DNA from: a virus
DNA length: 14,336 nucleotides
Reading direction: 5' to 3' (one strand)
UHGV virus genome: UHGV-1706348
Positions 1 through 14,336 of this stretch are shown in pieces. The notes below the pieces were generated by a model, which saw only the letters and a list, made by a program, of their open reading frames with translations, had not been told where the DNA came from and did no database searches. The position numbers were made by a program, and so were the translations under genes. The number at the start of each line of letters is the position of its first letter. The stretch's first letter is position 1.

Positions 1-45
1 GATTGCCTCTTGTCTCGTGGGCTCGGAGATGTGTATAAGAGACAG
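1..45. other. Library adapter contamination (Nextera i7 side): tail of P7 (gat), 8-nt index TGCCTCTT, GTCTCGTGGGCTCGG, then the 19-nt Tn5 mosaic end AGATGTGTATAAGAGACAG
   Basis: Read directly: positions 12-45 are GTCTCGTGGGCTCGGAGATGTGTATAAGAGACAG, the Nextera transposase read-2 adapter; positions 4-11 (TGCCTCTT) fit an i7 index as it appears in the adapter (N711 from memory). Genomic sequence starts at 46. Confidence 0.9.
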
Positions 46-528
46 CTTTTCTTCCTCGGTAGCCATATCTAAATCGACAGCATCCTGCAGCGTGGCAATG
101 ATTTCACCTGCATATGCAATCTGCTCTTTCTTCTGAGACTCCGCCGCTCTGACAAGCGCATCACGCTCTGCATTCTCATCATTCACCCACGCATTTCCGT
201 TCCATTTCTGATAATCCCCCTCCGGGGAAATGGCTGTCACGTCTGGAGGTAATGCGCCAAGTTCAGAAATATAAATGGCTGCTCCCGTTTTCGTTTCGTA
301 GACAGTCTTTCCGCGATGATCTTCCATCAACTCCCATTTCATTTCATCTGCATTGAAAACGGCTGCATAACCAGCAGGAATATCAGGTGGTGCAATATCT
401 GTACTGTTTGCAGGCAGGCCAGTATACGGCGGAATATATGCATCACTTTCGCCAATAAACTCATTGGTTCCATCAAGTAAATTGAAAACGCGGATAGTTT
501 GTGCTTCTGCACTCATTCTGAAAGCCAT
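46..528 (-). CDS. tfa: Tail fiber assembly protein (chaperone), lambda Tfa-like; 3'-partial, truncated by contig end and adapter
   Basis: My translation from ATG at 528 reads [59 protein letters not shown]...[14 protein letters not shown], close to the lambda Tfa N-terminus as I recall it ([54 protein letters not shown]...). Start ATG overlaps the tail fiber stop by 1 nt (TAATG). Frame runs open to position 46, where adapter begins. Confidence 0.85.
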
Positions 529-3146
529 TATGCAAGCCTCACAATATAGTTAAATGCGATGTTTTTGACGGTGTTTTCGGTATTACCAGTAGCATTTACG
601 GTAATGGAATGCCCGTGTGAGCCAATAGCAACAGTGTGTGAATGTGCACCAATACCAACAGTATGGTTATGTGCTCCAATGTCGACTGTATGTGCATGAT
701 TGCCTGATGAACTTGTAGTCGTAGCACCTTTATCACTTCGCGGAACACCATAATCTGCACCGCCTGATTGCACGCTCACAGCAAAACCGACGGTATGTGT
801 ATGATTGCCAGAAGTATTGGTTGATTTTGTGCCGTGGTTAAACGTACTGACTGTTTTTGTCCCGTAATCAAATGAACTGGTCGTTTTCGTTCCTAAGTCC
901 GTATTTGACGCACTGGCGCTGTGAGTATGCGATTTAATCCCGTCCTGTTCCTGTGACAATACGGCACGCCCACTGGCGGGTTTGCCCTTGATTGTCCAGC
1001 CGCGCATATCAGGAATAACACCAGAAGGATAGGCAATAGCCAGTTTCGGATATGCAGCCTTATCAAACGTCTGCCCCTGCATGATCGCATAGCCTGCAGG
1101 TGGTGTATCTGATGGCCACGGCAGCGGAACACCTGGCGGAAACGCTTCAATATTTGCCGAGCCGTCAAATTTTACGCCGTTAATTGTCCTTGGCGTTTTC
1201 AGCTTTGTAGCTGTAGCCGCATTGCCGGACAGTTCGCCTGAAATACCGGCGCTGAAGGTTTGTTTCGCCGCCCATGTCTGAGCTTCGTCGATAATTGGCA
1301 CACGTCTTGTCGTGATCGTGCGGCTTCCCGGATTTCCTGAAATACGCACCATAAAAAAGCGGTAATTCGCTTTACTTACAGTGCTGCGCCATACATGCAT
1401 TGAGCGCCCCGTACCGGAATCATCACTCGGACCAACTGCGATGTTTATCAGGTTGCCATCAATGACGCCCCAGTCCATACCGTCGGGAATGTTGGTCATG
1501 TTATCAAGCCGAACGGTTATCAGACTGCCCGGCACAAAGTCGTGGGTCTGCCAGTCCAGGCTGGTGAGCTTTGCCACTGCACCGCCGATACCCAGATTCA
1601 GGGGAAGTGAATACGAGGTGTAGACTTCCCGCCATTCGCTCCACGAGCTGCCGGTATAGACGCGCTCAAACGTGCGACCTTTAAGGGTTGCACCTGTTCC
1701 GGCAGTTGTATAACGCTGCCATACGTTAACACCATCAAAGCGCCTCAACACTTCCAGAATACCGAGGACTGTCACGCCGTTTCCGTCCAGTATTGGACCG
1801 TTGGTCGCTTTACCTGTAACGCTGTAAATACCTGGTGAAGTCACATCATTCAAATCCCCGTCGTAATAACGACTCTCTGACTGATGACCGACTCTTAACC
1901 ACGGTTCCCACTGCGGATTTGATGCATCCCAGCTTGCCGCAAGGCAGCGGACATACATATTTCCACGGCGAGTGGTATAACGTTGCGTTCTTCCATAATT
2001 CCCGCCTTCGAGGATCTCAAGCGTCCCCTGAGCAAAGCCGCCTTCCTCTGGATAATTGCGTTCATATGAAGCTATAGCCGAGCTACTGTTACGCCATAAA
2101 CCAAGATGTTCGGCAGCTCCAAGCGTATTCAGGTCTATAGTCGTACTCAAAGGGCGGGTAGCTGATTGAGTGTGACGCCATACGCCCCATGGACCATCAG
2201 TACCATTCCACTTATTGGCGAGTTTACGCATGTATACATTGCCGTCTCTCGTGATAAAGCGTTGCGTGCCTGCAAAATTGCCGGCAGCAAAAACCTCAAG
2301 CACACCGACAGCATTATCTTCCGGGAAATTTTTCTCCAGTGTTGCGTTAGTTGAGGTAGCTTTAGACCAGCTCCCCAGATAAGCCTTAACTGGACCAAAT
2401 GTATTCAGATCAGCATCAACCGGCATTTCGCCGTTGTTTTTCATAAACGTCAGGCTGGTAACGCCAACATTGTCCAGAAAAGCTGATTTATCCTGGATAT
2501 CTGCACCGTTCTGATTTTTCGCCAGACGTGAATTTGCGTTGTCATTCGCAGCCTTGACCGCTTTTGGCGTTGCCGCCAGTTTTTCACTGGTGCTGTTTGT
2601 TGCGCTGCTTAACTGGGTAAAACCTTTTTCTGTCAGCGTGGCGTCAGGATGGCGGCGGGACTGCTCATGTTCTGCGATTTTGTCATCGACGTAATCCTGC
2701 GTCGCCATCACTGTGCTGGCATCAATACTCAGCTCAACGGACGCCACGTTACTGACAATAATAACCATGCGACAGGTCTGCGCACGCCCGGAGCCTTCAG
2801 CGAGTTCAGGCTTATAGCTTTCTGCCATGTTGGCGACCGCAATCAGTGTTCCGGCATCGTCATACAGACCAAGCTCACGCATCCAGAAGCCGCCCACTTC
2901 GGGCGGTACAACCAGTTCAGCCACGATATAGTTTTTATTCTTGTTATCCACGCTGACTTTATTCAGAGCGTGACGCCAGACCTCATGCACCAGTTTCGTC
3001 TGACCGGCATCCGGCACCGGCAATTTGCCATTACCGTCACCCACGGCCATTGCAGACAGGTTTACTTTTTTCCCGCCGGGGACAGTGGCGGCTGCCAGCT
3101 TTGCGGCTCCGGCAGTAGTGATAACGGTTTTAAATTTCGTGCTCAT
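528..3146 (-). CDS. H: Tail fiber protein (872 aa): P2 gpH-like N-terminal domain, triplicated shaft repeat, lambda Stf-like His-x-His C-terminal tip
   Basis: Complete ORF in the track. N-terminus [21 protein letters not shown]...[31 protein letters not shown] is P2 H-like; C-terminus ...[58 protein letters not shown] is lambda side-tail-fiber-like. Sits between the baseplate genes and tfa. Confidence 0.9.
597..932 (-). repeat. His-x-His motif repeats in the tail fiber C-terminal tip (aa 739-850), preceded by GTKT repeats
   Basis: Motifs [42 protein letters not shown] read from the translation. Coding repeats, not CRISPR. Confidence 0.6.
1617..2330 (-). repeat. Three diverged ~58-aa tandem protein repeats (~91-aa period) inside the tail fiber shaft (aa ~273-330, 364-422, 455-510)
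   Basis: Aligned by eye: [53 protein letters not shown] / [56 protein letters not shown] / [52 protein letters not shown]. Nucleotide identity between copies is only moderate, so the duplication is old. Confidence 0.6.
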
Positions 3147-3156
3147 TGTTTCTCAC

Positions 3157-3687
3157 TTATCCGGGATAAACAGTAATAACATCACCATCACAGACCACAC
3201 CGCCTGTATACAGACAGCCGGGAATGTCCTGGATAATGTTCAGACCGATAAGGTGGCGACTTGCGGGTTTGGCATCGGCAATCAGCCGTTCCATTTCCAG
3301 ATACATCTCCTCCGTGATGCCGCTTTCCAGTACGCCGATATCAAGGCGGAAGGTTCCGGGCGGGTCGTTTGTCTCCCACCATTCCTTTACGTGAATGAGA
3401 TAGCCGAGCGGCTCCACCACACGCCGGATTGCGCCGACAGTGCCTTTATGACAATGAATGAAATAGGCATCGCGGATAACGGCGCGTTTTGTCGCTTCCG
3501 GCCACTTTTCATCCCACCTGTCGACCGAAAACGCCCACGCCAGCCACGGCAGCAGATTTGCCGGACAGGAGTCCGGGTTCCACAGCTCACGAATACTGAC
3601 CGGCGTTTTTTCAATTTCCGCACAGGCTTTTGCGGCAGCGACTTCAAGCGGTGATGAGCCGGTCGGCAGCAGTCGCGAATCACTCAT
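3157..3687 (-). CDS. I: Baseplate assembly protein I (P2 gpI-like), 176 aa
   Basis: Complete ORF, same length as P2 gpI, positioned between J and H; start overlaps the J stop by 8 nt. Confidence 0.85.
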   Translation of the reverse strand: MSDSRLLPTGSSPLEVAAAKACAEIEKTPVSIRELWNPDSCPANLLPWLAWAFSVDRWDEKWPEATKRAVIRDAYFIHCHKGTVGAIRRVVEPLGYLIHVKEWWETNDPPGTFRLDIGVLESGITEEMYLEMERLIADAKPASRHLIGLNIIQDIPGCLYTGGVVCDGDVITVYPG

Positions 3688-4588
3688 CCGAGCCTCCGGT
3701 CACGACGCGGTATTCGGTACAGAAAGACGCCTGCGTACTGTTGAGCACGATGTCGGCCAGTGGTGCAGCCAGTTCGACACGCTGCACGCCTTCCACATGC
3801 AAAGCGGCATAAATGGCAGACAGACGGATGTCACGCCCCAGCCGGTGCTGTGCCGTGATATACGCTTCCAGTTTTTTCACGGCGGCAGCGCGAATGGGTT
3901 CGCTTTCGGGACCAGGGTAAAGGTAAAGCGTGGCGTTTATCTGGTATTCAACGATGGCGGCAGACTGCACAGTCACGCGGTCGGCCACCGGCCTGACATC
4001 CTCGCCATTAAGGGCGTTACGTACCACAGCCAGCAGGTCTTCGGATGCGACACCATTATTCTCACGTGACAGCACAGAGATGGTGACGCAGGCCGGAGAC
4101 GGACTGGTGACAGAGATATCCGCGACACGCCCGTCGGCACTGCGGCCATGATACTGATAGGCACCCACCGACCCGGCGACGCTTAAACCTTCAAACGCCT
4201 GCTGAATACGCAGACGATAATCGGTGTCAGATTCCATCACTGCCGGTGTCGGCGGAATGGTCGAATCATCTGCCGGGGTGATAATCAGGCGTGTGGTGTT
4301 GTAATTGGCACCAATCACATCAAGGTCATTACCGGCTGCACAGGCCAGCATCACCGCCCGTGCGGCCTCATTCACACGCTGACGCCAGATAAGCTCACGA
4401 TAAGCATTTTCCTCCAGCAGTTTAACGAGAGGCTCAGATTCCAGCGTCAGGGTACGGGCGACCGCCTCCTGCTGGTCTTCCGGGTAAAGGGAAATCAGTG
4501 TCGCCTTGCGTTCAGCGAGAATGGTTTCAAAGTCCAGCTCCTCGACCACATCCGGTGCGGGTAGCTGGTTCAGGTCGATAATCGGCAT
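3680..4588 (-). CDS. J: Baseplate assembly protein J (P2 gpJ-like), 302 aa
   Basis: Complete ORF beginning MPIIDLNQLPAPDVVEELDFETILAERKATLISLYPE..., same length as P2 gpJ, sits between W and I. Confidence 0.88.
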   Translation of the reverse strand: MPIIDLNQLPAPDVVEELDFETILAERKATLISLYPEDQQEAVARTLTLESEPLVKLLEENAYRELIWRQRVNEAARAVMLACAAGNDLDVIGANYNTTRLIITPADDSTIPPTPAVMESDTDYRLRIQQAFEGLSVAGSVGAYQYHGRSADGRVADISVTSPSPACVTISVLSRENNGVASEDLLAVVRNALNGEDVRPVADRVTVQSAAIVEYQINATLYLYPGPESEPIRAAAVKKLEAYITAQHRLGRDIRLSAIYAALHVEGVQRVELAAPLADIVLNSTQASFCTEYRVVTGGSDE

Positions 4589-4592
4589 GGTT

Positions 4593-4940
4593 TCAACTCA
4601 CAGGGATGGTTAATGAAAGTGGCTGGCCGGTGTCGTTGTGCTGGCCGGTTAACGTGACCGTCATTCGCCCGTCAAAACTGCGCTCAGTGATGACGGATGA
4701 CAGGGTGACGCGGGGTTCCCATTTCAGCACCGCCATGTAACAGGCGACCTTAATCTGCAACTCAAGCGCCGGGGTCTGCGGCTGGTCAATCATTGACGCC
4801 AGCAACGAGCCGTAATCACGACGCATCACCCGTGAGCCGACCGGCGTGCGCAGGATATCGCCGATACTCTGGCTGATATGCTCAAGGTCAGTGACAGTCA
4901 GGCCATCACTGCGATTCATTCCGAGATAACGCGCTGTCAT
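4593..4940 (-). CDS. W: Baseplate assembly protein W (P2 gpW / T4 gp25-like), 115 aa
   Basis: Complete ORF of P2 gpW size; ATG overlaps the V stop as ATGA (4937-4940). Confidence 0.85.
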   Translation of the reverse strand: MTARYLGMNRSDGLTVTDLEHISQSIGDILRTPVGSRVMRRDYGSLLASMIDQPQTPALELQIKVACYMAVLKWEPRVTLSSVITERSFDGRMTVTLTGQHNDTGQPLSLTIPVS

Positions 4941-5572
4941 AAAGGCCTCCCGGTTGTGCCGCCGCTGTCGCCGGGGTGTTTATGGGTATGCAGTACCTTA
5001 CCGTTTGATGAGAGTTCACCGCCGGTATGTTCAATGTTGCCGCGCATCGTCCCGCCCTTCTGCACTTCCAGCGTGCCGGTGATCAGCTTGTTTGTGCAGA
5101 CCACCTCCGGCGTGTCCAGAGTGACACGGGTTGATGCTTTCACCGTGACCACCGGCACCGTGGCAGTAACAGAATCAGAAGCCGTCACGCTGGCCGTTTT
5201 AATTCCGCTTACCGTGAGTGCACTGGTTTCAGGTTCATACTCAATCACCGCCCCGTCAGGGAAACGGATATGCAGGGCATCCGCCGACGCAGACGGCGCG
5301 GGGTTATCACCGGAATAAATCCCCGGCAGAACAAACGCCGTGTCGAGTTCACCGCCCACGGACAGAATCAGCACCTGTTCCCCCACGGAAGGTGCCCACC
5401 ATGTGCGCGAACGTCCGGCGCGATGGGTCAGCCACTGAAGCCAGTCGGTGCACATGCCGCCGGTCTGCACACGGCAGCGACCGGCGTTAAGGTCGGTTTC
5501 AACGATAATGCCGGTGCGGATCATGTTGCGCAGTGCGCGCGCGAGTTCCTGAATATTTGCGAGAGTGTTCAT
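4937..5572 (-). CDS. V: Baseplate spike / assembly protein V (P2 gpV-like), 211 aa
   Basis: Complete ORF of P2 gpV size, first gene after the S-V intergenic gap; C-terminal part is Gly/His-rich (...KVLHTHKHPGDSGGTTGRPL). Confidence 0.85.
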   Translation of the reverse strand: MNTLANIQELARALRNMIRTGIIVETDLNAGRCRVQTGGMCTDWLQWLTHRAGRSRTWWAPSVGEQVLILSVGGELDTAFVLPGIYSGDNPAPSASADALHIRFPDGAVIEYEPETSALTVSGIKTASVTASDSVTATVPVVTVKASTRVTLDTPEVVCTNKLITGTLEVQKGGTMRGNIEHTGGELSSNGKVLHTHKHPGDSGGTTGRPL

Positions 5573-5584
5573 AACGGGAAGGAT

Positions 5585-5606
5585 GCCGCCGGGTCATACC
5601 GGCGGC
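5585..5606. promoter_or_regulatory. Perfect 8-bp GC-rich inverted repeat (GCCGCCGG-gtcata-CCGGCGGC) in the 66-bp S-V intergenic region
   Basis: Read directly from the sequence. No U-tract follows on either strand, so it is not a canonical intrinsic terminator. In P2 this position lies upstream of V, where a late promoter is expected. Confidence 0.5.
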
Positions 5607-5638
5607 AATGTGACGATGAGGTGTCGGGAATGGCACAA

Positions 5639-6091
5639 CTAACGGTCGAGATGAGCCAGGATAATCTCTTCAATCATCTGCACATCCTCACCGGTAAAGC
5701 CGAGCAGAGGACGCGCCGGATAATCAATTTTCTTACCGTCTTTCCGGGTTTCTTCCGACAGACCGAACTGATGCACGCTGGCGATTTTCGGTGACTTCCC
5801 GCCGTAAAATTCCATTGATGCCTGTTCCGGGCTGGCGCGGATATGCAAAAAGCGACTGGTAATAAGTTTCGCAAACATTTTTCGCTTAACACGACCGGTC
5901 TTTTTTTTGGCGCTCTGCTGCTGGCGTGGCGCGTAGGGTGTGCCGTCCGGGGCTTTCTGTGCCATCACCCGACGCTGCTGACTCTGTCGCAGACGTTTTG
6001 CCAGTTCGGCACTCAGTCGCCGACGCCCTGACGGTGACAGCGATTCAGTCAGTCCGGTCAGCCGGTCTTCAAAACGCTTAAACTCATTCAT
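5639..6091 (-). CDS. S: Tail completion / virion morphogenesis protein S (P2 gpS-like), 150 aa
   Basis: Complete ORF of P2 gpS size and position; start overlaps the R stop by 8 nt. Confidence 0.8.
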   Translation of the reverse strand: MNEFKRFEDRLTGLTESLSPSGRRRLSAELAKRLRQSQQRRVMAQKAPDGTPYAPRQQQSAKKKTGRVKRKMFAKLITSRFLHIRASPEQASMEFYGGKSPKIASVHQFGLSEETRKDGKKIDYPARPLLGFTGEDVQMIEEIILAHLDR

Positions 6092-6551
6092 CCCACTTGC
6101 TCACCAGTTCGCCATTGATATACAGCTCCATCGGGCGGGTGACCGGCTCCGGCGGCGGAGGTTCCGGGATATTCTTCACATGCAGTGCGCCGTCCACCTC
6201 ACTGACCAGCGTGCGCTCGGTCAGCATCAGGCTGATGCTGATATCAAAGCTGCTGTCATTGTTGATGTCTGCATAAAACGTGAAGCCCTTTTTCTGGCCT
6301 TCGTCGGTGGTCATGATGTCGGGCTGATTTTCCCGCAGCCACGCCAGCACCGGCACGATGAGCAGGTCAAAATCACCGGTAAAGTCGGTCACAATGACAT
6401 TGAGCGTGTAACGCTTTTCGAATGACAGCGACGTCGCCAGTGTGGAGGCAATACTCCCGTTATCCACGAATATCCGCAGCATCTCGGGGCTGGTTTTCAG
6501 CACCGTGACGGCATCAGTCAGTGCCCTGCGCAGGCTGTCGGGTTTGAGCAT
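6084..6551 (-). CDS. R: Tail completion protein R (P2 gpR-like), 155 aa
   Basis: Complete ORF of P2 gpR size, immediately after the lysis cassette. Confidence 0.8.
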   Translation of the reverse strand: MLKPDSLRRALTDAVTVLKTSPEMLRIFVDNGSIASTLATSLSFEKRYTLNVIVTDFTGDFDLLIVPVLAWLRENQPDIMTTDEGQKKGFTFYADINNDSSFDISISLMLTERTLVSEVDGALHVKNIPEPPPPEPVTRPMELYINGELVSKWDE

Positions 6552-6804
6552 CGTTTTCGTCCTGACAGTGTTTAATCATTTTTACCTGGCTGGCACAACG
6601 TGCCAGCGCGTTCTCAAGCTGCCGGATATCGGCACTTAAATCGCCGTTCGTCTGCGGGTCACTGCCCGGCATCGGGCAAAGACTCACTTTCGGGCAGGCG
6701 TTGTGGACAATCACTGGCGTCGGTGCAGGCCGGACGCTGGTGCAACCGGCGCACAGCATCAGGCAGGTCAGCGCCGTACCAGCGGCGAAAATCTTCGTTT
6801 TCAT
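6514..6804 (-). CDS. lysC: Outer-membrane spanin lipoprotein (Rz1-like; P2 LysC-like), 96 aa, out of frame with and overlapping lysB
   Basis: Translation MKTKIFAAGTALTCLMLCAGCTSVRPAPTPVIVHNACPKVSLCPMPGSDP...: signal peptide, lipobox-like LCAGC, Pro-rich mature region. Overlaps the 3' end of lysB (6659-6804) and the 5' end of R. The exact start is uncertain. Confidence 0.7.
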   Translation of the reverse strand: MKTKIFAAGTALTCLMLCAGCTSVRPAPTPVIVHNACPKVSLCPMPGSDPQTNGDLSADIRQLENALARCASQVKMIKHCQDENDAQTRQPAQGTD

Positions 6805-7084
6805 TCAGTAACCTCGTGATGGTTTTCTCGCGCTGTGCTTCACGCTTCGCCGCGTTCTCCAGTTCCTGACGCAGTGCCACCTGCGCCAGCTCGTTTTTGT
6901 CTGCTCTGGTGAGGGCAACATGAAGCTGATTTTTCAGCATGGTGATGGTCGTCTGCTGCCCGCTGGCGACGTTGTTCGCCCTGTCCAGCGAGGTGCGCAG
7001 GCTGGCGTTTTCATGCTTCGCCAGAAACAGACCGGCCACCGCCAGTGATAACAACACAACCAGCACAATCATCAGCTTTGACAT
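6659..7084 (-). CDS. lysB: Inner-membrane spanin (Rz-like; P2 LysB-like), 141 aa
   Basis: N-terminal transmembrane segment MSKLMIVLVVLLSLAVAGLFLA followed by a charged, probably coiled-coil region (QLHVALTRADKNELAQVALRQELENAAKREAQREKTITRLLNENEDFRRW); start overlaps the lysA stop. Confidence 0.8.
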   Translation of the reverse strand: MSKLMIVLVVLLSLAVAGLFLAKHENASLRTSLDRANNVASGQQTTITMLKNQLHVALTRADKNELAQVALRQELENAAKREAQREKTITRLLNENEDFRRWYGADLPDAVRRLHQRPACTDASDCPQRLPESESLPDAGQ

Positions 7085-7497
7085 GGTTCCCGCCCCTCAA
7101 AACGCTGACGACAGGCCGTGCGTATCAACCGGAAGAACACCGACGCCACGAGGTAAATCAGCGCGGTAAAAATCCACCCGGCAGCGACCAGCGAGATAAA
7201 CGTCGCCACCATCACCACCAGAGCCGCCGCCCGTCTGCGCCACGGCACCGGCTGCAAAAACAGCGACGCGACAATCTTCACGGCCAGCGATTCCGGCGGC
7301 AGCTCCCGCCCGTAGCGTTCCAGCACATACTCAGTGGCATACACGCCGACACCACCGGCAACCACACAGATAACCGTCGCCAGAATCGCCCAGGCGGCGA
7401 CAAAACTGACGGCCACGCTCTGCGGGTAAATCAGGGACAGTGCCAGCATCAGCGCCAGCGACACGTTCAGCATCAGTGAAAGGGATAATTTCTTCAT
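7072..7497 (-). CDS. lysA: Lysis timing membrane protein LysA-like, 141 aa, multi-pass hydrophobic
   Basis: Highly hydrophobic translation with several predicted TM segments, located between K and lysB as in P2. Confidence 0.7.
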   Translation of the reverse strand: MKKLSLSLMLNVSLALMLALSLIYPQSVAVSFVAAWAILATVICVVAGGVGVYATEYVLERYGRELPPESLAVKIVASLFLQPVPWRRRAAALVVMVATFISLVAAGWIFTALIYLVASVFFRLIRTACRQRFEGREPCQS

Positions 7498-7511
7498 GGT
7501 GTTTACTCCGT

Positions 7512-8009
7512 TTAAGCCGGTACGCCGCCAGCGGTACGCCAGACGGTGACCAGTTTTTCCAGTGAATGCTCACGCTGACCGTAACCGGCACCCGGCAGGG
7601 ACGCCCAGATATTGCGACAGCGTGAAATGGCGCGCTCAATGCGTCCCGCCCGGATGTCATCCAGTGCACCGCGTTCGCGGATCAACTGAATGGCGAGCCT
7701 GTCCTGTGACAACGGACTGAAATCCGGCAGGGCAAGCTGTTTGCGGTAATGCGGCCAGAACAGGTAAAGCTGCTGATAGCGCCCGGAGGCCGTGGATTTT
7801 TCACCGCGACGGTTAAACACCTTCGCCGGTCGGCCATGCGCGAACGGGTGGTCACTGTAGTCAGTGAAAATTTCCGGCTTCCCGTCCAGTCCGGTGACTA
7901 TCACGTCATAGCCCCGGTTTTTCGTCAGCGGATGATTCGCCGTCCCTTCGGACACGGCCAGCATGTCGAGAAAGGCGGCGATATTCTGATGCGTGTTAAT
8001 TACCGGCAT
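7512..8009 (-). CDS. K: Endolysin, lambda R-like (lytic transglycosylase family), 165 aa
   Basis: Translation MPVINTHQNIAAFLDMLAVSEGT...RGYDVIVTG...FTDYSDHP...GRYQ...FSPLSQD...RCRNIWASLPGAGYGQREH aligns by eye with lambda R as I recall it (AFLDMLAWSEGT...HGYDVIVGG...FTDYSDHP...GRYQ...FSPKSQD...RCSNIWASLPGAGYGQFEH). Start overlaps the Y stop (TAATG). Confidence 0.9.
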   Translation of the reverse strand: MPVINTHQNIAAFLDMLAVSEGTANHPLTKNRGYDVIVTGLDGKPEIFTDYSDHPFAHGRPAKVFNRRGEKSTASGRYQQLYLFWPHYRKQLALPDFSPLSQDRLAIQLIRERGALDDIRAGRIERAISRCRNIWASLPGAGYGQREHSLEKLVTVWRTAGGVPA

Positions 8010-8290
8010 TACTGTTTCCCCCTGCCCTTAAAGCGGCGCTGAATGGCAATCTCAATCACCTGATAACCGGCGATACCCAGCATGGAGCCGATGCCGCACA
8101 CCGCAGGCAGTGACAGGTCAGGAAACTGCACCAGAACAACACCGGCAACCATCGAGACAAAACCACCGAGCAACATGCGCCCGATAAACAGACGCGGGGT
8201 GATGGGTTCACCACCGGCAAGCACCTTGCCGACAACAATCAGCACCCCAATCATGAAAAGCGACAGGACGCTTTTTTCTTCTGCTGTCAT
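8009..8290 (-). CDS. Y: Holin (P2 gpY-like), 93 aa
   Basis: Small protein with hydrophobic TM segments and a charged C-terminus (RRFKGRGKQ), immediately upstream of the endolysin. Confidence 0.8.
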   Translation of the reverse strand: MTAEEKSVLSLFMIGVLIVVGKVLAGGEPITPRLFIGRMLLGGFVSMVAGVVLVQFPDLSLPAVCGIGSMLGIAGYQVIEIAIQRRFKGRGKQ

Positions 8291-8293
8291 GCG

Positions 8294-8497
8294 TTACTCC
8301 CACAGATTGACAGTTTCAGCCACGGGCGCGGTCTGAACGTCGGGCAGTTCGACGGCGGTGCCGTGTGGCAGCACCGCACCCAGTTCAGCCAGTCCCGGAT
8401 TTGCGGCGAGCACGGTCTCAACCACGCCCTCAGTGCGCCCGTAATACCGGACACAGATGGCGTCGAGCGTGTCGCCCTGTAGCGCAAAGGTCTTCAT
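8294..8497 (-). CDS. X: Tail protein X (P2 gpX-like, LysM-like), 67 aa
   Basis: I place the start at the internal ATG (MKTFALQGDTLDAICVRYYGRTEGVVETVLAANPGLAELGAVLPHGTAVELPDVQTAPVAETVNLWE), not at the 90-aa track ORF, because this gives the 67 aa I recall for P2 X and a 1-nt stop/start overlap with L (TGATG). Confidence 0.72.
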   Translation of the reverse strand: MKTFALQGDTLDAICVRYYGRTEGVVETVLAANPGLAELGAVLPHGTAVELPDVQTAPVAETVNLWE

Positions 8498-9006
8498 CAG
8501 ATTTGACTCACGATGCAGCGCGGCTTGTCCTGGATACGCGCCACCGCCCAGCGCATATCCCGCCACAGCTCATCAATAGTGCTGTCAATGCTGTCGGCCT
8601 TCTTGTCGCCTTTCGCACTGGCATCCACGCCGCGATAACGCTCATAAAGCGACGCGGTCGCCATCGCACACACGGCGCGCTCGTAGTAAAAAACCTTGAT
8701 GCTTTCACCGTCGATATCGTCCGCCGGGACGTCAGCCAGACGCGTAAAACCGGCGGCAATTTTCTGTTCGCGGTACTCGTACAGCTCCGCATTCGTCTCC
8801 GCCATGCCTGACTTGATGGCCTCACGCAGACGGGCGGGGGCGACGGTCTGCTCAAGGCGCATACGTTCCCGGACGCGCTTCGGGTCGATATCGGGAAAAA
8901 AGAACGTGTTTTTAATCACCGGCTCGTCGCCTGCCGGTTGCGGGATGACCACCGTACCCTCACCGGACACGGGAGCCTCCTTTCGCGGAATAATCAGCGT
9001 CATCAT
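8497..9006 (-). CDS. L: Head completion / stabilisation protein L (P2 gpL-like), ~169-170 aa
   Basis: Start placed at the ATGATG at 9006/9003 (MMTLIIPRKEAPVSGEG...), preceded by GAGG; the 189-aa track ORF extends upstream into untranslated spacer. Confidence 0.8.
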   Translation of the reverse strand: MMTLIIPRKEAPVSGEGTVVIPQPAGDEPVIKNTFFFPDIDPKRVRERMRLEQTVAPARLREAIKSGMAETNAELYEYREQKIAAGFTRLADVPADDIDGESIKVFYYERAVCAMATASLYERYRGVDASAKGDKKADSIDSTIDELWRDMRWAVARIQDKPRCIVSQI

Positions 9007-9105
9007 GACTACCTCAGAAAAGTCGGGCGGTGGACGCCGGTACAGTGTCAGGTGATTCACCCACACTGACCGGCGTGCCGCCCTGGCGCGGGGCGCATTC
9101 GGTTG

Positions 9106-9849
9106 TTAACTGGCTTTCTTTTTCGGGCGTCCACGTTTTGCCGGTGTCGCACTCCGGGTCTTACGCGGGGCACGGGTGGCCGCTTTGGGCTGCGGCTCCG
9201 GCTTCGGTTTCAGCTCCCGCTCCAGTCGTTCAATCTCTTTTTTGACGCCTGCCTGACAGTCGAGCTGTGTCGCACGTTGCAGGTGCGCCAGCGCACCGGC
9301 GGCATCACCAGCGTCACGCAGAAACAGACCGGTGATTTTGTGCAGCTTTGCGCGCACTTCATCAGGCATGTCAGCCGTGGCGGTCAGTTCAAGGGTGTCC
9401 GTCAGCAGGCGGGGATTCACAGACTCACCGGCAGCGTGAGCGCGCATGGCCGCAAGCGCCACCTCCTCGGTGAACATGTACGGCGGGGTGCGGCGGTGTT
9501 TACCCGGCATGGTCAGACCGTACTTCAGGGCATAACGGGCAATCTCCAGCGCACCGGCAATATCGCCGGTATCCAGACGCCACAGCATGACCGTCATCAG
9601 AATGTCATCCTGTGCACCTTTGCCCTGCTCCAGCACGCCGTTCACCCACGGCAACCAGAACGGCAGCAGTTCGCGTTTTTTCGCGGCCTTCAGCTCTTTT
9701 GAATAAATCGCTTTCAGTGTGCGCTGGTCTGCGGCGAGCTTAACCAGCATCTGCTCATAGACAGTTGCATGTCGCAGCGGGGCGGCTTCCCGCTGCGCGG
9801 TCATCGCTGCCGAGACCCGCATCATGTGGCGCTGTGCGGGACTCGTCAT
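9106..9849 (-). CDS. M: Terminase endonuclease (small) subunit M (P2 gpM-like), 247 aa
   Basis: Complete ORF of P2 gpM size, with a basic Lys/Arg/Pro-rich C-terminal tail (...KPKPEPQPKAATRAPRKTRSATPAKRGRPKKKAS), located right after the capsid gene. Confidence 0.85.
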   Translation of the reverse strand: MTSPAQRHMMRVSAAMTAQREAAPLRHATVYEQMLVKLAADQRTLKAIYSKELKAAKKRELLPFWLPWVNGVLEQGKGAQDDILMTVMLWRLDTGDIAGALEIARYALKYGLTMPGKHRRTPPYMFTEEVALAAMRAHAAGESVNPRLLTDTLELTATADMPDEVRAKLHKITGLFLRDAGDAAGALAHLQRATQLDCQAGVKKEIERLERELKPKPEPQPKAATRAPRKTRSATPAKRGRPKKKAS

Positions 9850-9852
9850 CGG

Positions 9853-10926
9853 TTACGCTCCCGGCTCTGCGGTCGCCCTGGCCGGTGTGGAGAAATCACC
9901 GACCTTAATTTTTTCCACCAGGCAACCGGCGGCGTAGTCTTCCACCACGTAATCAATATTCATTGACTCGTAGTTCTCCACGCGGTCGAGTTTCGGGTTT
10001 TCCTCAATCACGCGGCGATGGCTGTCATCCATGTAGTAGATGGACAGGTTTTCCAGCTTCGTGATGAGCATCGCATCCGCCGGGAAGTACGGGACGCGTA
10101 CCGCTGGCAGGTTGCCGATGCGTTTCTGGCTGATGATGACGTCAGCGGCCAGCATCTCGCTGTTGTCCTGCTCCTTGTTGACGATGGGGAAATACTTGTC
10201 CGCCAGTAGCTGACGCCCCACAATCACCACAAGGTCAGGGTCTTCCTGATACCACGGTTCAATCAGGTTGTTGGTCGCATCCATCACCAGTGCATCAAGG
10301 CTGGCATAATCACCGCCCTTACCCACGCGGATAACCTCAGAGGTGGTGCGGCCTTCCTCGTCAGTGACCTTGCTCATCACGCGCGCCGGGGCTTCATTGC
10401 GGTATTTCTGCAGCCAGCCGACCGCCACATCCTGCAACATCGGATTGCTGCTGCGGTCAGAGGTTTCGGCACGCTTCACGCCGTTAAAACCGGCCATGAT
10501 GAAATCAAGGGACTGGCGTTTGATAATGGCGTTACGGATACGGAGCTGGAAATCCTGATAACGCGCCCACAGGTCCAGCGTTTTGTAGCGGATATAAAAA
10601 TCGAAGTTAATCTGGTCGCATTCGTACTTGTTTGACGCCAGCTTCGAGAAGTCCTTCGGCTGACGTTCGGTGCCACCGGCGGTGTCGGTGGTGCTGGCGA
10701 TGGAGCCGGTGACACCGATGCCAATTTTTTCCCCTTTCATTTCGCTGACCGGCACAATGTTGATGCGGGTCAGAAAGTCAGAGGACTCCTGCATGGTGTT
10801 CATCAGGGTCTGGGTGACCGACGGTTCAACGGTGAATTTTTTCGACACATCACCGGCGTCGATGCCGTTCAGTTCGGCAACACGGGACAGATAGGCATTA
10901 AATTTAAAACGGGTTTCCTGGCGCAT
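9853..10926 (-). CDS. N: Major capsid protein N (P2 gpN-like), 357 aa
   Basis: Complete ORF of P2 gpN size, between scaffold and small terminase; AGGA Shine-Dalgarno 6 nt upstream of the ATG. Confidence 0.9.
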   Translation of the reverse strand: MRQETRFKFNAYLSRVAELNGIDAGDVSKKFTVEPSVTQTLMNTMQESSDFLTRINIVPVSEMKGEKIGIGVTGSIASTTDTAGGTERQPKDFSKLASNKYECDQINFDFYIRYKTLDLWARYQDFQLRIRNAIIKRQSLDFIMAGFNGVKRAETSDRSSNPMLQDVAVGWLQKYRNEAPARVMSKVTDEEGRTTSEVIRVGKGGDYASLDALVMDATNNLIEPWYQEDPDLVVIVGRQLLADKYFPIVNKEQDNSEMLAADVIISQKRIGNLPAVRVPYFPADAMLITKLENLSIYYMDDSHRRVIEENPKLDRVENYESMNIDYVVEDYAAGCLVEKIKVGDFSTPARATAEPGA

Positions 10927-10984
10927 ATTTGTTCCTGAAATTAAGGGTTAATCGTGAAGGTTTTCCCGGACTGACTGACGCCGG

Positions 10985-11839
10985 TCAGCAGTTCGTCATC
11001 AGGGCGTCTCCGCCACCGCCGGTGGCCTTGCTGCGGCGCTGCTGGGTCAGACTTTCGGTGTGGTCGAGACTGTTTTTCAGGCGGGTGAATGCCTGGCTGG
11101 TTTCATCCGCCCTGTCAGTCACATCCTGCTTAAGTGCGGAAAAGGCGGTTTCCATCTCAGCGAGGCGCTGCTCAGTGGCGCTCAGTTTTTCCTGCACATG
11201 TTCAGCAACAGCGGTCACCGCTTCATGCACATCATTCAGACGGGCGTCATCACTGGCCTGTTTGCGACCAAAAATGGATTTCACCTTTTCGGTCAGGGCG
11301 GTGAACACGGTTTCAGGCAGGTCTTCAAATTCCAGCTCAACGGGCGTTGCCACTGAAATCAGGTTTTCAGGGCTTAATTTGAAGCGGTTCAGGGGGTTGT
11401 GTTTTGCCTTGCGGCAGAATTCCAGGTATTCCGTGCCGAGGCTCGCCGGGTCGTCGGTGACGGCCAGACCCACCAGATAACATTTGCCGGTATTGGCAAA
11501 GTTCGGCTGAATTTCCATTGAGGTGTAGACCTTCTGCGCGGCCTTGTTCATCGCGATAAGGTCATCGGTCGGGGTGATTTTCGCAAACAGCGCCCATTTG
11601 CCTTTCAGCGCCGAATCGTCGTCAATCTTTTCGGCCTTCAGTTCGACCACATCGCCATAACGTTTAAAAATACCGTCAGGCAGGATGCCGCGCAGATGTT
11701 CCAGGTTAATGCGGCAACCATAGACACGCGGGTCAAAGGTTTCGGCCATTTCCTGAATATCCTGCGCACTGATGACACGCCCGTCACAGGTGTCACCCTC
11801 AACGCCGATACGAAAGAATTTTGAGACTTTTTTTGCCAT
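10985..11839 (-). CDS. O: Capsid scaffolding protein O (P2 gpO-like), 284 aa plus initiator Met
   Basis: Start placed at the internal ATG giving MAKKVSKFFRIGVEGDTCDGRVISAQDIQEMAETFDPRV..., not the 306-aa track ORF; C-terminal half is helical and charged (...SATEQRLAEMETAFSALKQDVTDRADETSQAFTRLKNS...). Confidence 0.85.
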   Translation of the reverse strand: MAKKVSKFFRIGVEGDTCDGRVISAQDIQEMAETFDPRVYGCRINLEHLRGILPDGIFKRYGDVVELKAEKIDDDSALKGKWALFAKITPTDDLIAMNKAAQKVYTSMEIQPNFANTGKCYLVGLAVTDDPASLGTEYLEFCRKAKHNPLNRFKLSPENLISVATPVELEFEDLPETVFTALTEKVKSIFGRKQASDDARLNDVHEAVTAVAEHVQEKLSATEQRLAEMETAFSALKQDVTDRADETSQAFTRLKNSLDHTESLTQQRRSKATGGGGDALMTNC

Positions 11840-12012
11840 TGTCAGGAGTCCTGAATAGTGATTAGAGGAGTCACATGTCGGCATCAGTTTCCCGACGATG
11901 CGCATCCTCCGCCATCAGTCCCGGATGGCTTATCACTGACACAACAGCACCTTAGCGAATCGCGGGGCGCGACTCAGTAGCCTTGCCGTGTATTCATCAC
12001 GGCGAGGTATTC
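11840..12012. promoter_or_regulatory. Divergent intergenic region between O (-) and P (+); expected site of the two divergent late promoters of a P2-like phage
   Basis: 173-bp non-coding gap between divergent operons. P2 has Ogr-dependent late promoters here with a TGT-N12-ACA element near -55; I find no perfect copy, only TGG-N12-ACA at 11926-11943. A 6-bp inverted repeat GCCGTG-tattcat-CACGGC (11985-12003) abuts the P Shine-Dalgarno (GAGG 12004-12007). Confidence 0.45.
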
Positions 12013-13785
12013 ATGACCATCACCACAGACACCACTCTTTTACACGACCCGCGTCGTCAGGCGGCGCTGCTGTACTGGCAGGGGTTTTCCGTGCCGCAGA
12101 TTGCCGCCATGTTGCAGATGAAACGTCCGACGGTGCAGAGCTGGAAACAGCGCGACGGCTGGGACAGTGTTGCCCCCATCAGCCGTGTCGAAATGAGCCT
12201 GGAAGCGCGGCTGACCCAGCTCATCATCAAACCGCAGAAAACCGGCGGTGACTTCAAGGAAATTGACCTGCTGGGACGCCAGATTGAACGACTGGCACGG
12301 GTCAACCGCTACAGCCAGACCGGCAACGAGGCAGACCTTAATCCGAACGTCGCTAACCGCAACAAAGGCGGGCGGCGCAAACCGAAAAAGAATTTTTTCA
12401 GTGACGAGGCCATCGAAAAGCTGGAGCAGATTTTCTTTGAGCAGTCTTTCGAATATCAGTTGCACTGGTATCGCGCCGGGCTTGAGCACCGCATCCGCGA
12501 TATCCTGAAATCCCGCCAGATTGGCGCGACGTTTTATTTTTCCCGCGAGGCGCTGCTGCGTGCCCTGAAAACCGGTCATAACCAGATTTTTCTGTCGGCC
12601 AGTAAAACGCAGGCGTATGTGTTCCGCGAATACATCATCGCCTTTGCCCGTCTGGTTGACGTTGACCTGACCGGTGACCCGATTGTCCTGGGCAATAACG
12701 GCGCAAAACTGATTTTTCTCGGCACCAACTCCAACACCGCGCAGAGCCATAACGGCGACCTGTACGTCGACGAGATTTTCTGGATCCCGAATTTTCAGGT
12801 ACTGCGTAAGGTGGCATCAGGTATGGCCTCACAGAGTCACCTGCGCTCGACCTATTTCTCCACCCCGTCCACGCTGGCGCACGACGCCTACCCGTTCTGG
12901 TCAGGTGAACTGTTCAACCGGGGACGCGCCAGCGCCGCCGAACGCGTGGAAATCGACGTCAGTCATAACGCCCTTGCCGGTGGGCTTCTCTGTGCGGACG
13001 GCCAGTGGCGGCAGATTGTCACCATTGAGGACGCCCTGAAAGGTGGCTGCACGCTGTTCGACATTGAGCAGCTCAAACGTGAAAACAGCGCCGACGATTT
13101 TAAAAACCTGTTCATGTGTGAATTTGTTGACGACAAGGCGTCAGTGTTCCCGTTCGAGGAGCTGCAACGCTGCATGGTCGACACGCTGGAAGAATGGGAA
13201 GACTATGCGCCGTTTGCCGCGAATCCGTTCGGCTCCCGCCCGGTATGGATTGGTTACGACCCGTCACACCGTGGCGACAGTGCCGGATGCGTGGTGCTGG
13301 CACCGCCGGTGGTGGCCGGTGGCAAATTCAGAATACTTGAGCGTCACCAGTGGAAAGGCATGGACTTTGCCACTCAGGCGGAATCCATCCGCAAACTCAC
13401 CGAAAAATACAACGTCGAATACATCGGTATTGATGCCACCGGCCTCGGTGTCGGCGTGTTCCAGCTCGTGCGCTCGTTCTATCCCGCCGCGCGCGATATC
13501 CGCTACACACCGGAAATGAAAACCGCAATGGTGCTCAAGGCAAAAGACGTTATCCGCCGTGGCTGTCTGGAATATGACGTCAGCGCCACCGACATCACCA
13601 GCTCGTTTATGGCTATCCGCAAGACCATGACCAGCAGCGGACGCAGCGCCACCTATGAGGCCAGCCGCAGCGAGGAAGCCAGCCACGCCGACCTCGCCTG
13701 GGCGACCATGCACGCCCTGTTAAATGAGCCACTCACCGCCGGTATCAGCACCCCGCTGACATCCACCATTCTGGAGTTTTACTGA
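12013..13785 (+). CDS. P: Terminase ATPase (large) subunit P (P2 gpP-like), 590 aa
   Basis: Start placed at ATG 12013 (MTITTDTTLLHDPRRQAALLYWQGF...) with GAGG upstream, not the TTG-initiated 600-aa track ORF. Stop TGA (13783-13785) overlaps the Q ATG by 1 nt. Confidence 0.9.
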   Translation: MTITTDTTLLHDPRRQAALLYWQGFSVPQIAAMLQMKRPTVQSWKQRDGWDSVAPISRVEMSLEARLTQLIIKPQKTGGDFKEIDLLGRQIERLARVNRYSQTGNEADLNPNVANRNKGGRRKPKKNFFSDEAIEKLEQIFFEQSFEYQLHWYRAGLEHRIRDILKSRQIGATFYFSREALLRALKTGHNQIFLSASKTQAYVFREYIIAFARLVDVDLTGDPIVLGNNGAKLIFLGTNSNTAQSHNGDLYVDEIFWIPNFQVLRKVASGMASQSHLRSTYFSTPSTLAHDAYPFWSGELFNRGRASAAERVEIDVSHNALAGGLLCADGQWRQIVTIEDALKGGCTLFDIEQLKRENSADDFKNLFMCEFVDDKASVFPFEELQRCMVDTLEEWEDYAPFAANPFGSRPVWIGYDPSHRGDSAGCVVLAPPVVAGGKFRILERHQWKGMDFATQAESIRKLTEKYNVEYIGIDATGLGVGVFQLVRSFYPAARDIRYTPEMKTAMVLKAKDVIRRGCLEYDVSATDITSSFMAIRKTMTSSGRSATYEASRSEEASHADLAWATMHALLNEPLTAGISTPLTSTILEFY

Positions 13786-14291
13786 TGAGTAAGAAAAAAG
13801 GGAAAACACCGCAACCTGCGGCAAAAAAAATGACCGCCAGCGCCCCGAAAATGGAGGCATTCACCTTTGGTGAGCCGGTGCCGGTACTCGACCGCCGTGA
13901 CATTCTGGATTACGTCGAGTGCATCAGTAACGGCAGATGGTATGAGCCGCCGGTCAGCTTTACCGGTCTGGCGAAAAGCCTGCGTGCTGCCGTGCATCAC
14001 AGCTCGCCGATTTACGTCAAACGCAATATTCTGGCCTCGACATTTATCCCGCATCCGTGGCTTTCCCAGCAGGATTTCAGCCGCTTTGTGCTTGATTTTC
14101 TGGTGTTCGGTAATGCGTTTCTGGAAAAGCGTTACAGCACCACCGGTAAGGTCATCAGACTGGAAACCTCACCGGCAAAATATACCCGCCGTGGCGTGGA
14201 GGAGGATGTTTACTGGTGGGTGCCGTCCTTCAACGAGCCGACAGCCTTCGCGCCCGGCTCCGTGTTTCACCTGCTGGAGCCGGATATCAAT
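13785..14291 (+). CDS. Q: Portal protein Q (P2 gpQ-like), 3'-partial (first ~169 aa), truncated by contig end and adapter
   Basis: Translation MSKKKGKTPQPAAKKMTASAPKMEAFTFGEPVPVLDRRDILDYVECISNGRWYEPPVSFTG...; downstream of and coupled to P as in P2. The last residues of the track ORF (LSLIHI-stop) are encoded by adapter, not genome. Confidence 0.85.
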
Positions 14292-14336
14292 CTGTCTCTT
14301 ATACACATCTGACGCTGCCGACGAATAGAGAGGTGT
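14292..14336. other. Library adapter contamination (Nextera i5 side, reverse complement): mosaic end CTGTCTCTTATACACATCT, GACGCTGCCGACGA, 8-nt index ATAGAGAG, GTGT
   Basis: Read directly: 14292-14324 is CTGTCTCTTATACACATCTGACGCTGCCGACGA, the reverse complement of the Nextera read-1 adapter; 14325-14332 (ATAGAGAG) is the reverse complement of CTCTCTAT (i5 index 502 from memory); GTGT begins the P5 tail. Confidence 0.9.

Follow-up and report, generated by a model that had tools for sequence, protein, structure and literature searches.

Nextera adapter and index sequence at both ends of a P2-like prophage contig, and a false stop codon in its portal gene

We have found that the first 45 and the last 45 nt of the window, that is, of the whole 14,336-nt stretch of DNA analysed here, are synthetic Illumina Nextera adapter and index, a technical artefact without biological novelty, and that the stop codon of the portal gene Q is a product of the laboratory and not of biology. 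All 90 terminal nucleotides are identical to the Nextera / Nextera XT dual-index adapters (Tn5ME-A/B, S502, N711), in the order and orientation of a library molecule. It is very likely that the two stretches are the untrimmed ends of an N711/S502 Nextera library on a short-read contig, reached by read-through and assembly extension, with an ordinary P2-like insert between them.

At the 3' end, the string expected on the P5 side is the reverse complement of AATGATACGGCGACCACCGAGATCTACAC + CTCTCTAT + TCGTCGGCAGCGTCAGATGTGTATAAGAGACAG, and exact string comparison of its first 45 nt with positions 14292-14336 gave identity at 45/45 bases, the window reading CTGTCTCTTATACACATCTGACGCTGCCGACGA-ATAGAGAG-GTGT. 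A previous reading of the sequence without database searches (hereafter, the sequence-only reading) had taken these positions for the reverse complement of the read-1 adapter followed by that of an index, an assignment that holds for 41 nt, the final four (GTGT) belonging to the P5 tail instead. The start that it gave, 14292, is confirmed. Database alignments of the window begin at 46 and end at 14292, and they reach this last base because the C found there is common to the adapter and to the CAG with which the natural gene continues, a chance sharing; the boundary 14291/14292 stands, as any later start would leave the 19-nt mosaic end incomplete. The 33-nt read-1 adapter occurs once in the window when up to three mismatches are allowed, and in none of 200 dinucleotide-preserving shuffles.

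The 5' end was matched in the same manner, positions 1-45 reading GAT + TGCCTCTT + GTCTCGTGGGCTCGGAGATGTGTATAAGAGACAG, which is the end of the N711 i7 primer followed directly by the read-2 adapter (45/45). The two termini therefore do carry different adapters, as had been proposed, with read-2 and N711 at the 5' end, where a gene is also cut. Tn5ME-A, Tn5ME-B and the 19-nt mosaic-end oligonucleotide have been printed as laboratory oligonucleotides (PMC7402673), and the N711 (...GAGATTGCCTCTTGTCTCGTGGGCTCGG) and S502 (...CTACACCTCTCTATTCGTCGGCAGCGTC) primers are printed in PMC7757419, so that both indexes, TGCCTCTT and CTCTCTAT, come from the same primer list. Two or more of the three adapter strings occur together in 3,344 papers. 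At each end of the window, a mosaic end lies inward against the insert and is followed outward by the read-1 or read-2 segment, an 8-nt kit index and the beginning of a P5 or P7 tail (Table 1); these bases are absent at the junctions in natural relatives and present on unrelated sequences. Compared with a complete Nextera molecule, the window retains little of either flow-cell tail (3 nt of P7, 4 nt of P5). Within 46-14291, no piece of adapter reaches 10 nt.

Table 1. Adapter components, insert and affected genes along the window (rc, reverse complement)
Feature	Positions	Strand	Evidence
Final 3 nt (GAT) of the Illumina P7 tail CAAGCAGAAGACGGCATACGAGAT	1-3	+	Exact match
i7 index as written in the N711 primer, TGCCTCTT; read as AAGAGGCA	4-11	+	Exact match and printed primer
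Nextera read-2 transposon adapter	12-45	+	Exact match; Tn5ME-B oligonucleotide; bases absent from relatives
Read-2-specific segment GTCTCGTGGGCTCGG	12-26	+	Exact match
19-nt Tn5 mosaic end AGATGTGTATAAGAGACAG	27-45	+	Exact match; abuts insert, faces inward
Genuine insert, late-gene block of a P2-like (Peduovirus) E. coli prophage	46-14291	.	Single-piece alignments
Tail-fibre assembly gene (P2 G-like, Caudo_TAP), first 161 of 192 codons	46-528	-	Relatives and Pfam PF02413, 84 bits
Terminase ATPase/large subunit gene (P2 P), complete, 590 aa	12013-13785	+	Exact protein recorded in many assemblies
Portal gene (P2 Q), first 169 of 344 codons, genuine	13785-14291	+	Identity to relatives
rc of Nextera read-1 transposon adapter	14292-14324	+	Exact match; 13 relatives diverge here
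rc of 19-nt Tn5 mosaic end, CTGTCTCTTATACACATCT	14292-14310	+	Exact match; abuts insert, faces inward
rc of read-1-specific segment, GACGCTGCCGACGA (read-1 segment TCGTCGGCAGCGTC)	14311-14324	+	Exact match
rc of i5 index, ATAGAGAG (i5 index CTCTCTAT = S502)	14325-14332	+	Exact match and printed primer list
GTGT, rc of ACAC, final 4 nt of the P5 tail	14333-14336	+	Exact match

Natural relatives differ from the window at precisely these two junctions. The 13 relatives that cover the 3' junction read CAGGAGCTGTACGGC... past position 14291, and in five of them an identical 30-nt anchor is followed by CAGGAGCTGTACGGCCTGCCGGAATATCT..., as opposed to CTGTCTCTTATACAC... in the window. At the 5' junction, nine relatives share one identical natural 45-nt sequence (GCGATTCAG...GGCTTAA), unlike that of the window. 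The 1 kb adjoining the adapter matches 1,681 of 5,426 complete E. coli genomes (28 Gb), whereas the adapter 45-mer finds no match in the same genomes, even at E <= 10.

This last result bears on a reading in which the terminal bases would be genomic, for example through insertion of a Tn5-derived transposon into the portal gene, to which we give a vanishingly small probability. The 19-nt element is indeed a recognition end of the Tn5 transposase, but no transposon body lies beyond it: there follow the primer site for Illumina read 1, a kit index of 8 nt and the P5 tail. The ends face inward around phage DNA, as they do on a tagmentation fragment, rather than outward around an element, and the same string is found where contigs of unrelated phages end, with Listeria, Bacillus, Vibrio and Streptococcus among the hosts. 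A natural Tn5/IS50 or an engineered Tn5 insertion was consequently rejected, as neither a body nor outward-facing ends are present. The mosaic end is itself a synthetic sequence that combines the natural outside and inside ends.

The consequences of the 3' adapter for the portal gene can be followed codon by codon. The open reading frame 13785-14312 encodes a 175-aa product, of which the first 169 residues end ...HLLEPDIN and the last six, LSLIHI, come from the adapter, as does the stop. Position 14292 is the first base of codon 170, and the TGA (14310-14312) spans the border between the mosaic end and the read-1-specific part. A second open reading frame, 13867-14328, likewise terminates within the adapter. 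Residues 1-169 are identical to the portal of an E. coli EFF60 prophage (WP_000038161.1) and align without gaps, and with two differences, to P2 gpQ (NP_046757.1, 344 aa). The arrangement is also that of P2, with the gene order P-Q and the stop of the 590-aa terminase P overlapping the start codon of Q. In contrast to P2 gpQ and the portals of P2-like E. coli prophages, the copy in the window is devoid of residues 170-344 and bears the six adapter-encoded residues, whereas past the junction (...PDIN) the portals of relatives continue QELYGLPEY..., QELYGLPEYLSALN... through residue 344.

The sequence-only reading had proposed that this TGA is encoded by the adapter, that Q is truncated and that LSLIHI is not real, and each of these points is substantiated: by string match the TGA lies inside the adapter, LSLIHI occurs in no relative, and comparison with the full-length P2-family portal shows collinearity over residues 1-169 followed by divergence, the complete protein having 344 aa. 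Downstream of the identical terminase protein, 10 further loci carry a Phage_portal protein of 339-344 aa. A 344-aa relative scores 53.3 bits against Phage_portal PF04860 (cut-off 39.1), while the 175-aa product of the window, short of a full-length portal, has no Pfam match at E <= 0.001.

At the opposite end, the tail-fibre assembly gene has its 3' end cut at position 46, and its frame continues into the adapter for 15 residues without reaching a stop. The full 192-aa protein, found in two relatives (L003 and L006), continues LSLTHWKKYRVLLNRVQPEDAPDIEWPEMPQ. As the natural protein proceeds LSL(THWKK...) and the adapter-encoded tail LSL(IHISEP...), the artefact seems to begin three residues later in the protein than in the DNA, which differs between the two; the shared LSL is a coincidence at the protein level. 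The neighbouring tail-fibre protein (528-3146, minus strand) has 872 aa, compared with a shorter fibre in classical P2, and it is present with identical sequence in several E. coli assemblies and metagenomes. The alignments of many P2-like phage records start only at window position 1192. Because of this late start, and because the fibre is longer than that of P2, the distal tail fibre and the assembly gene probably form a swapped host-range module.

Between the two adapters, the window was compared as a whole with the 5,426 complete E. coli genomes, which gave single-piece alignments over 46-14292 at about 98% identity, one place covering at least 80% of the query in 846 genomes. One E. coli assembly (GCA_040341295.1, L006) is 100% identical over 46-13146 (13.1 kb), the full reach of the fetched locus, and the best matches among phage records are P2-like Peduoviruses. 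According to the annotation of L003, the minus-strand order is G', H, I, J, W, V, S, R, lysC/lysB/lysA, K, Y, X, L, M, N, O, and the plus-strand genes after O are P and then Q'; the annotated products include endolysin, holin, small terminase M, capsid N, scaffold O, terminase ATPase P and portal Q. Chimerism within the insert, or adapter left inside it, was considered as well and is ruled out by the single-piece alignments and the lack of internal adapter fragments noted above. By its alignments and gene order, the insert is an ordinary, unrearranged fragment of a P2-like E. coli prophage.

The relatives of this fragment vary in the genes that they carry at one site within it and beyond its borders. 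Three otherwise near-identical prophages (L004, L005 and L008) have, at 6706-7491, an extra 261-aa gene on the opposite strand between S and V, without a Pfam match; it is absent from the window (site 5572-5637) and from L006, and the S/V intergenic site resembles a moron site with variable cargo. Downstream of the tail-fibre assembly gene, L004-L011 carry an AAA_15/AAA_21 ATPase with a DUF4435 protein. Downstream of the portal, L012-L021 carry, variously, GmrSD_N with a HEPN-domain protein (HEPN_MAE_28990/HEPN_RiboL-PSP), a reverse transcriptase (RVT_1) adjoining a Retron_Ec48_antiviral-family protein, AAA_15/AAA_21 ATPases, Fic, cytolethal distending toxin genes and PDDEXK_GAPS4. These cargo flanks are variable regions of P2-like prophages.

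The same adapters are found on a large number of other viral sequences. Among GenBank/RefSeq phage records, 32 contain the read-1-side and 44 the read-2-side adapter, most sites being near the end of the record, and the hosts include Listeria, Bacillus, Vibrio, Streptococcus, Staphylococcus, Acinetobacter and Pseudomonas. When IMG/VR was scanned for exact matches to the read-1 adapter, at least 120 loci (L023-L142) were returned, with 121 sites among the matches listed, and 119 of these 121 are located within 100 nt of the locus end, pointing outward. The terminal stretches of these 119 listed cases measure 33-86 nt and cluster at 42-49, six of them being exactly 45 nt long, and the reverse-complemented P5 string follows the index in all 70 of the viral contigs, among the matches listed, that have at least 4 nt beyond it. 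Such a terminal distribution is the signature of a laboratory sequence and not of a mobile element. The window shares with these contaminated public assemblies the location at the end, the outward orientation and the range of lengths, and it differs from the usual contaminated contig in that both of its ends are affected, that they are equal in length and that two proteins acquire false C-termini.

Untrimmed Nextera adapters are thus widespread in public phage data. Many of the adapter-bearing IMG/VR contigs, among the matches listed, come from one data set (3300045988), and several phage records have CDSs annotated over the adapter, for instance inside T4-like tail-fibre and baseplate genes. 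A P2-like sibling in RefSeq, Peduovirus P22H1 (NC_049386.1 / LR595870.1, L022), which is 97% identical to the window, contains the Nextera read-1 adapter at 1297-1329, inside the CDS annotated as terminase large subunit, where an in-frame 36-nt insertion adds CLLYTSDAADDP to the protein (between ...NEPLT and AGISTPL...); positions 1-31 of the same record are 31 nt of the same adapter.

As for how the adapter came to lie at these junctions, we infer that read-through reads were assembled without trimming, which is the usual cause and fits the case. In a dual-indexed N711/S502 library, some fragments would be shorter than the read length, and reads from them would cross the whole insert and go on into mosaic end, adapter, index and flow-cell tail. 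Where the prophage coverage ended, the assembler would have followed these untrimmed reads, leaving 45 nt of inward-facing adapter at each end; the equal lengths may reflect a k-mer graph that broke at the first all-adapter k-mer, with k about 45. The adapters interrupt Q past codon 169 and the tail-fibre assembly gene past codon 161, and their translation supplies the false C-termini.

Read-through alone predicts neither two stretches of exactly 45 nt each nor a window of exactly 14336 = 14 x 1024 nt. The equal stretches are compatible with the k-mer-graph break, with chance (6 of the 119 IMG/VR cases among the matches listed) and with a constructed window. That 45 nt might be an unusual length for such a stretch was considered as well and rejected, given the lengths recorded in IMG/VR among the matches listed. 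Deliberate construction, in which adapters would have been appended to, or written over the ends of, a real prophage fragment, for instance as a control window, would account for these two numbers and also for the absence of the exact 3' junction string from the viral, metagenome and genome contig collections searched, and of the false 175-aa protein from the gene-position index. We nevertheless hold it to be highly improbable, as 45 nt falls within the range of natural artefacts, the indexes form a realistic kit pair and absence from collections that are incomplete is weak evidence.

It is also improbable that the window is one physical N711/S502 library molecule, its 14.2-kb insert sequenced from one end to the other by a long-read or synthetic-long-read method of high accuracy. 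Read from the P7 side, the layout is the one that such a molecule would have (P7 tail, i7, read-2, insert, and the reverse complements of read-1, i5 and P5), both indexes are from one primer list, and the insert is free of internal adapter fragments and rearrangement; however, the tails retain only 3 and 4 nt of a full 24 and 29 nt, two independent assembly ends would differ in adapter half the time anyway, and ordinary short-read viral contigs commonly show this terminal pattern too. Moreover, standard Nextera PCR does not normally give products of 14 kb. Were either the library molecule or the constructed window the true explanation, the terminal bases would still be synthetic, with nothing biologically new in them.

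The importance of these results is one of data hygiene only. Left untrimmed, the contig gives rise to two spurious products, a "portal" of 175 aa that ends at a false stop and an assembly protein fused to adapter-encoded residues, and a recognisable portal gene is turned into a hypothetical protein with the wrong C-terminus; in addition, shared adapter ends can make unrelated contigs seem related, or a contig seem circular. The remedy is to trim 45 nt from each end and to mark both terminal genes as partial. Because public reference records of P2-like phages show such contamination as well, an adapter check of this kind is worth automating. For the prophage itself, what the adapter truncation has removed from the contig are the variable flank regions of P2-like prophages.
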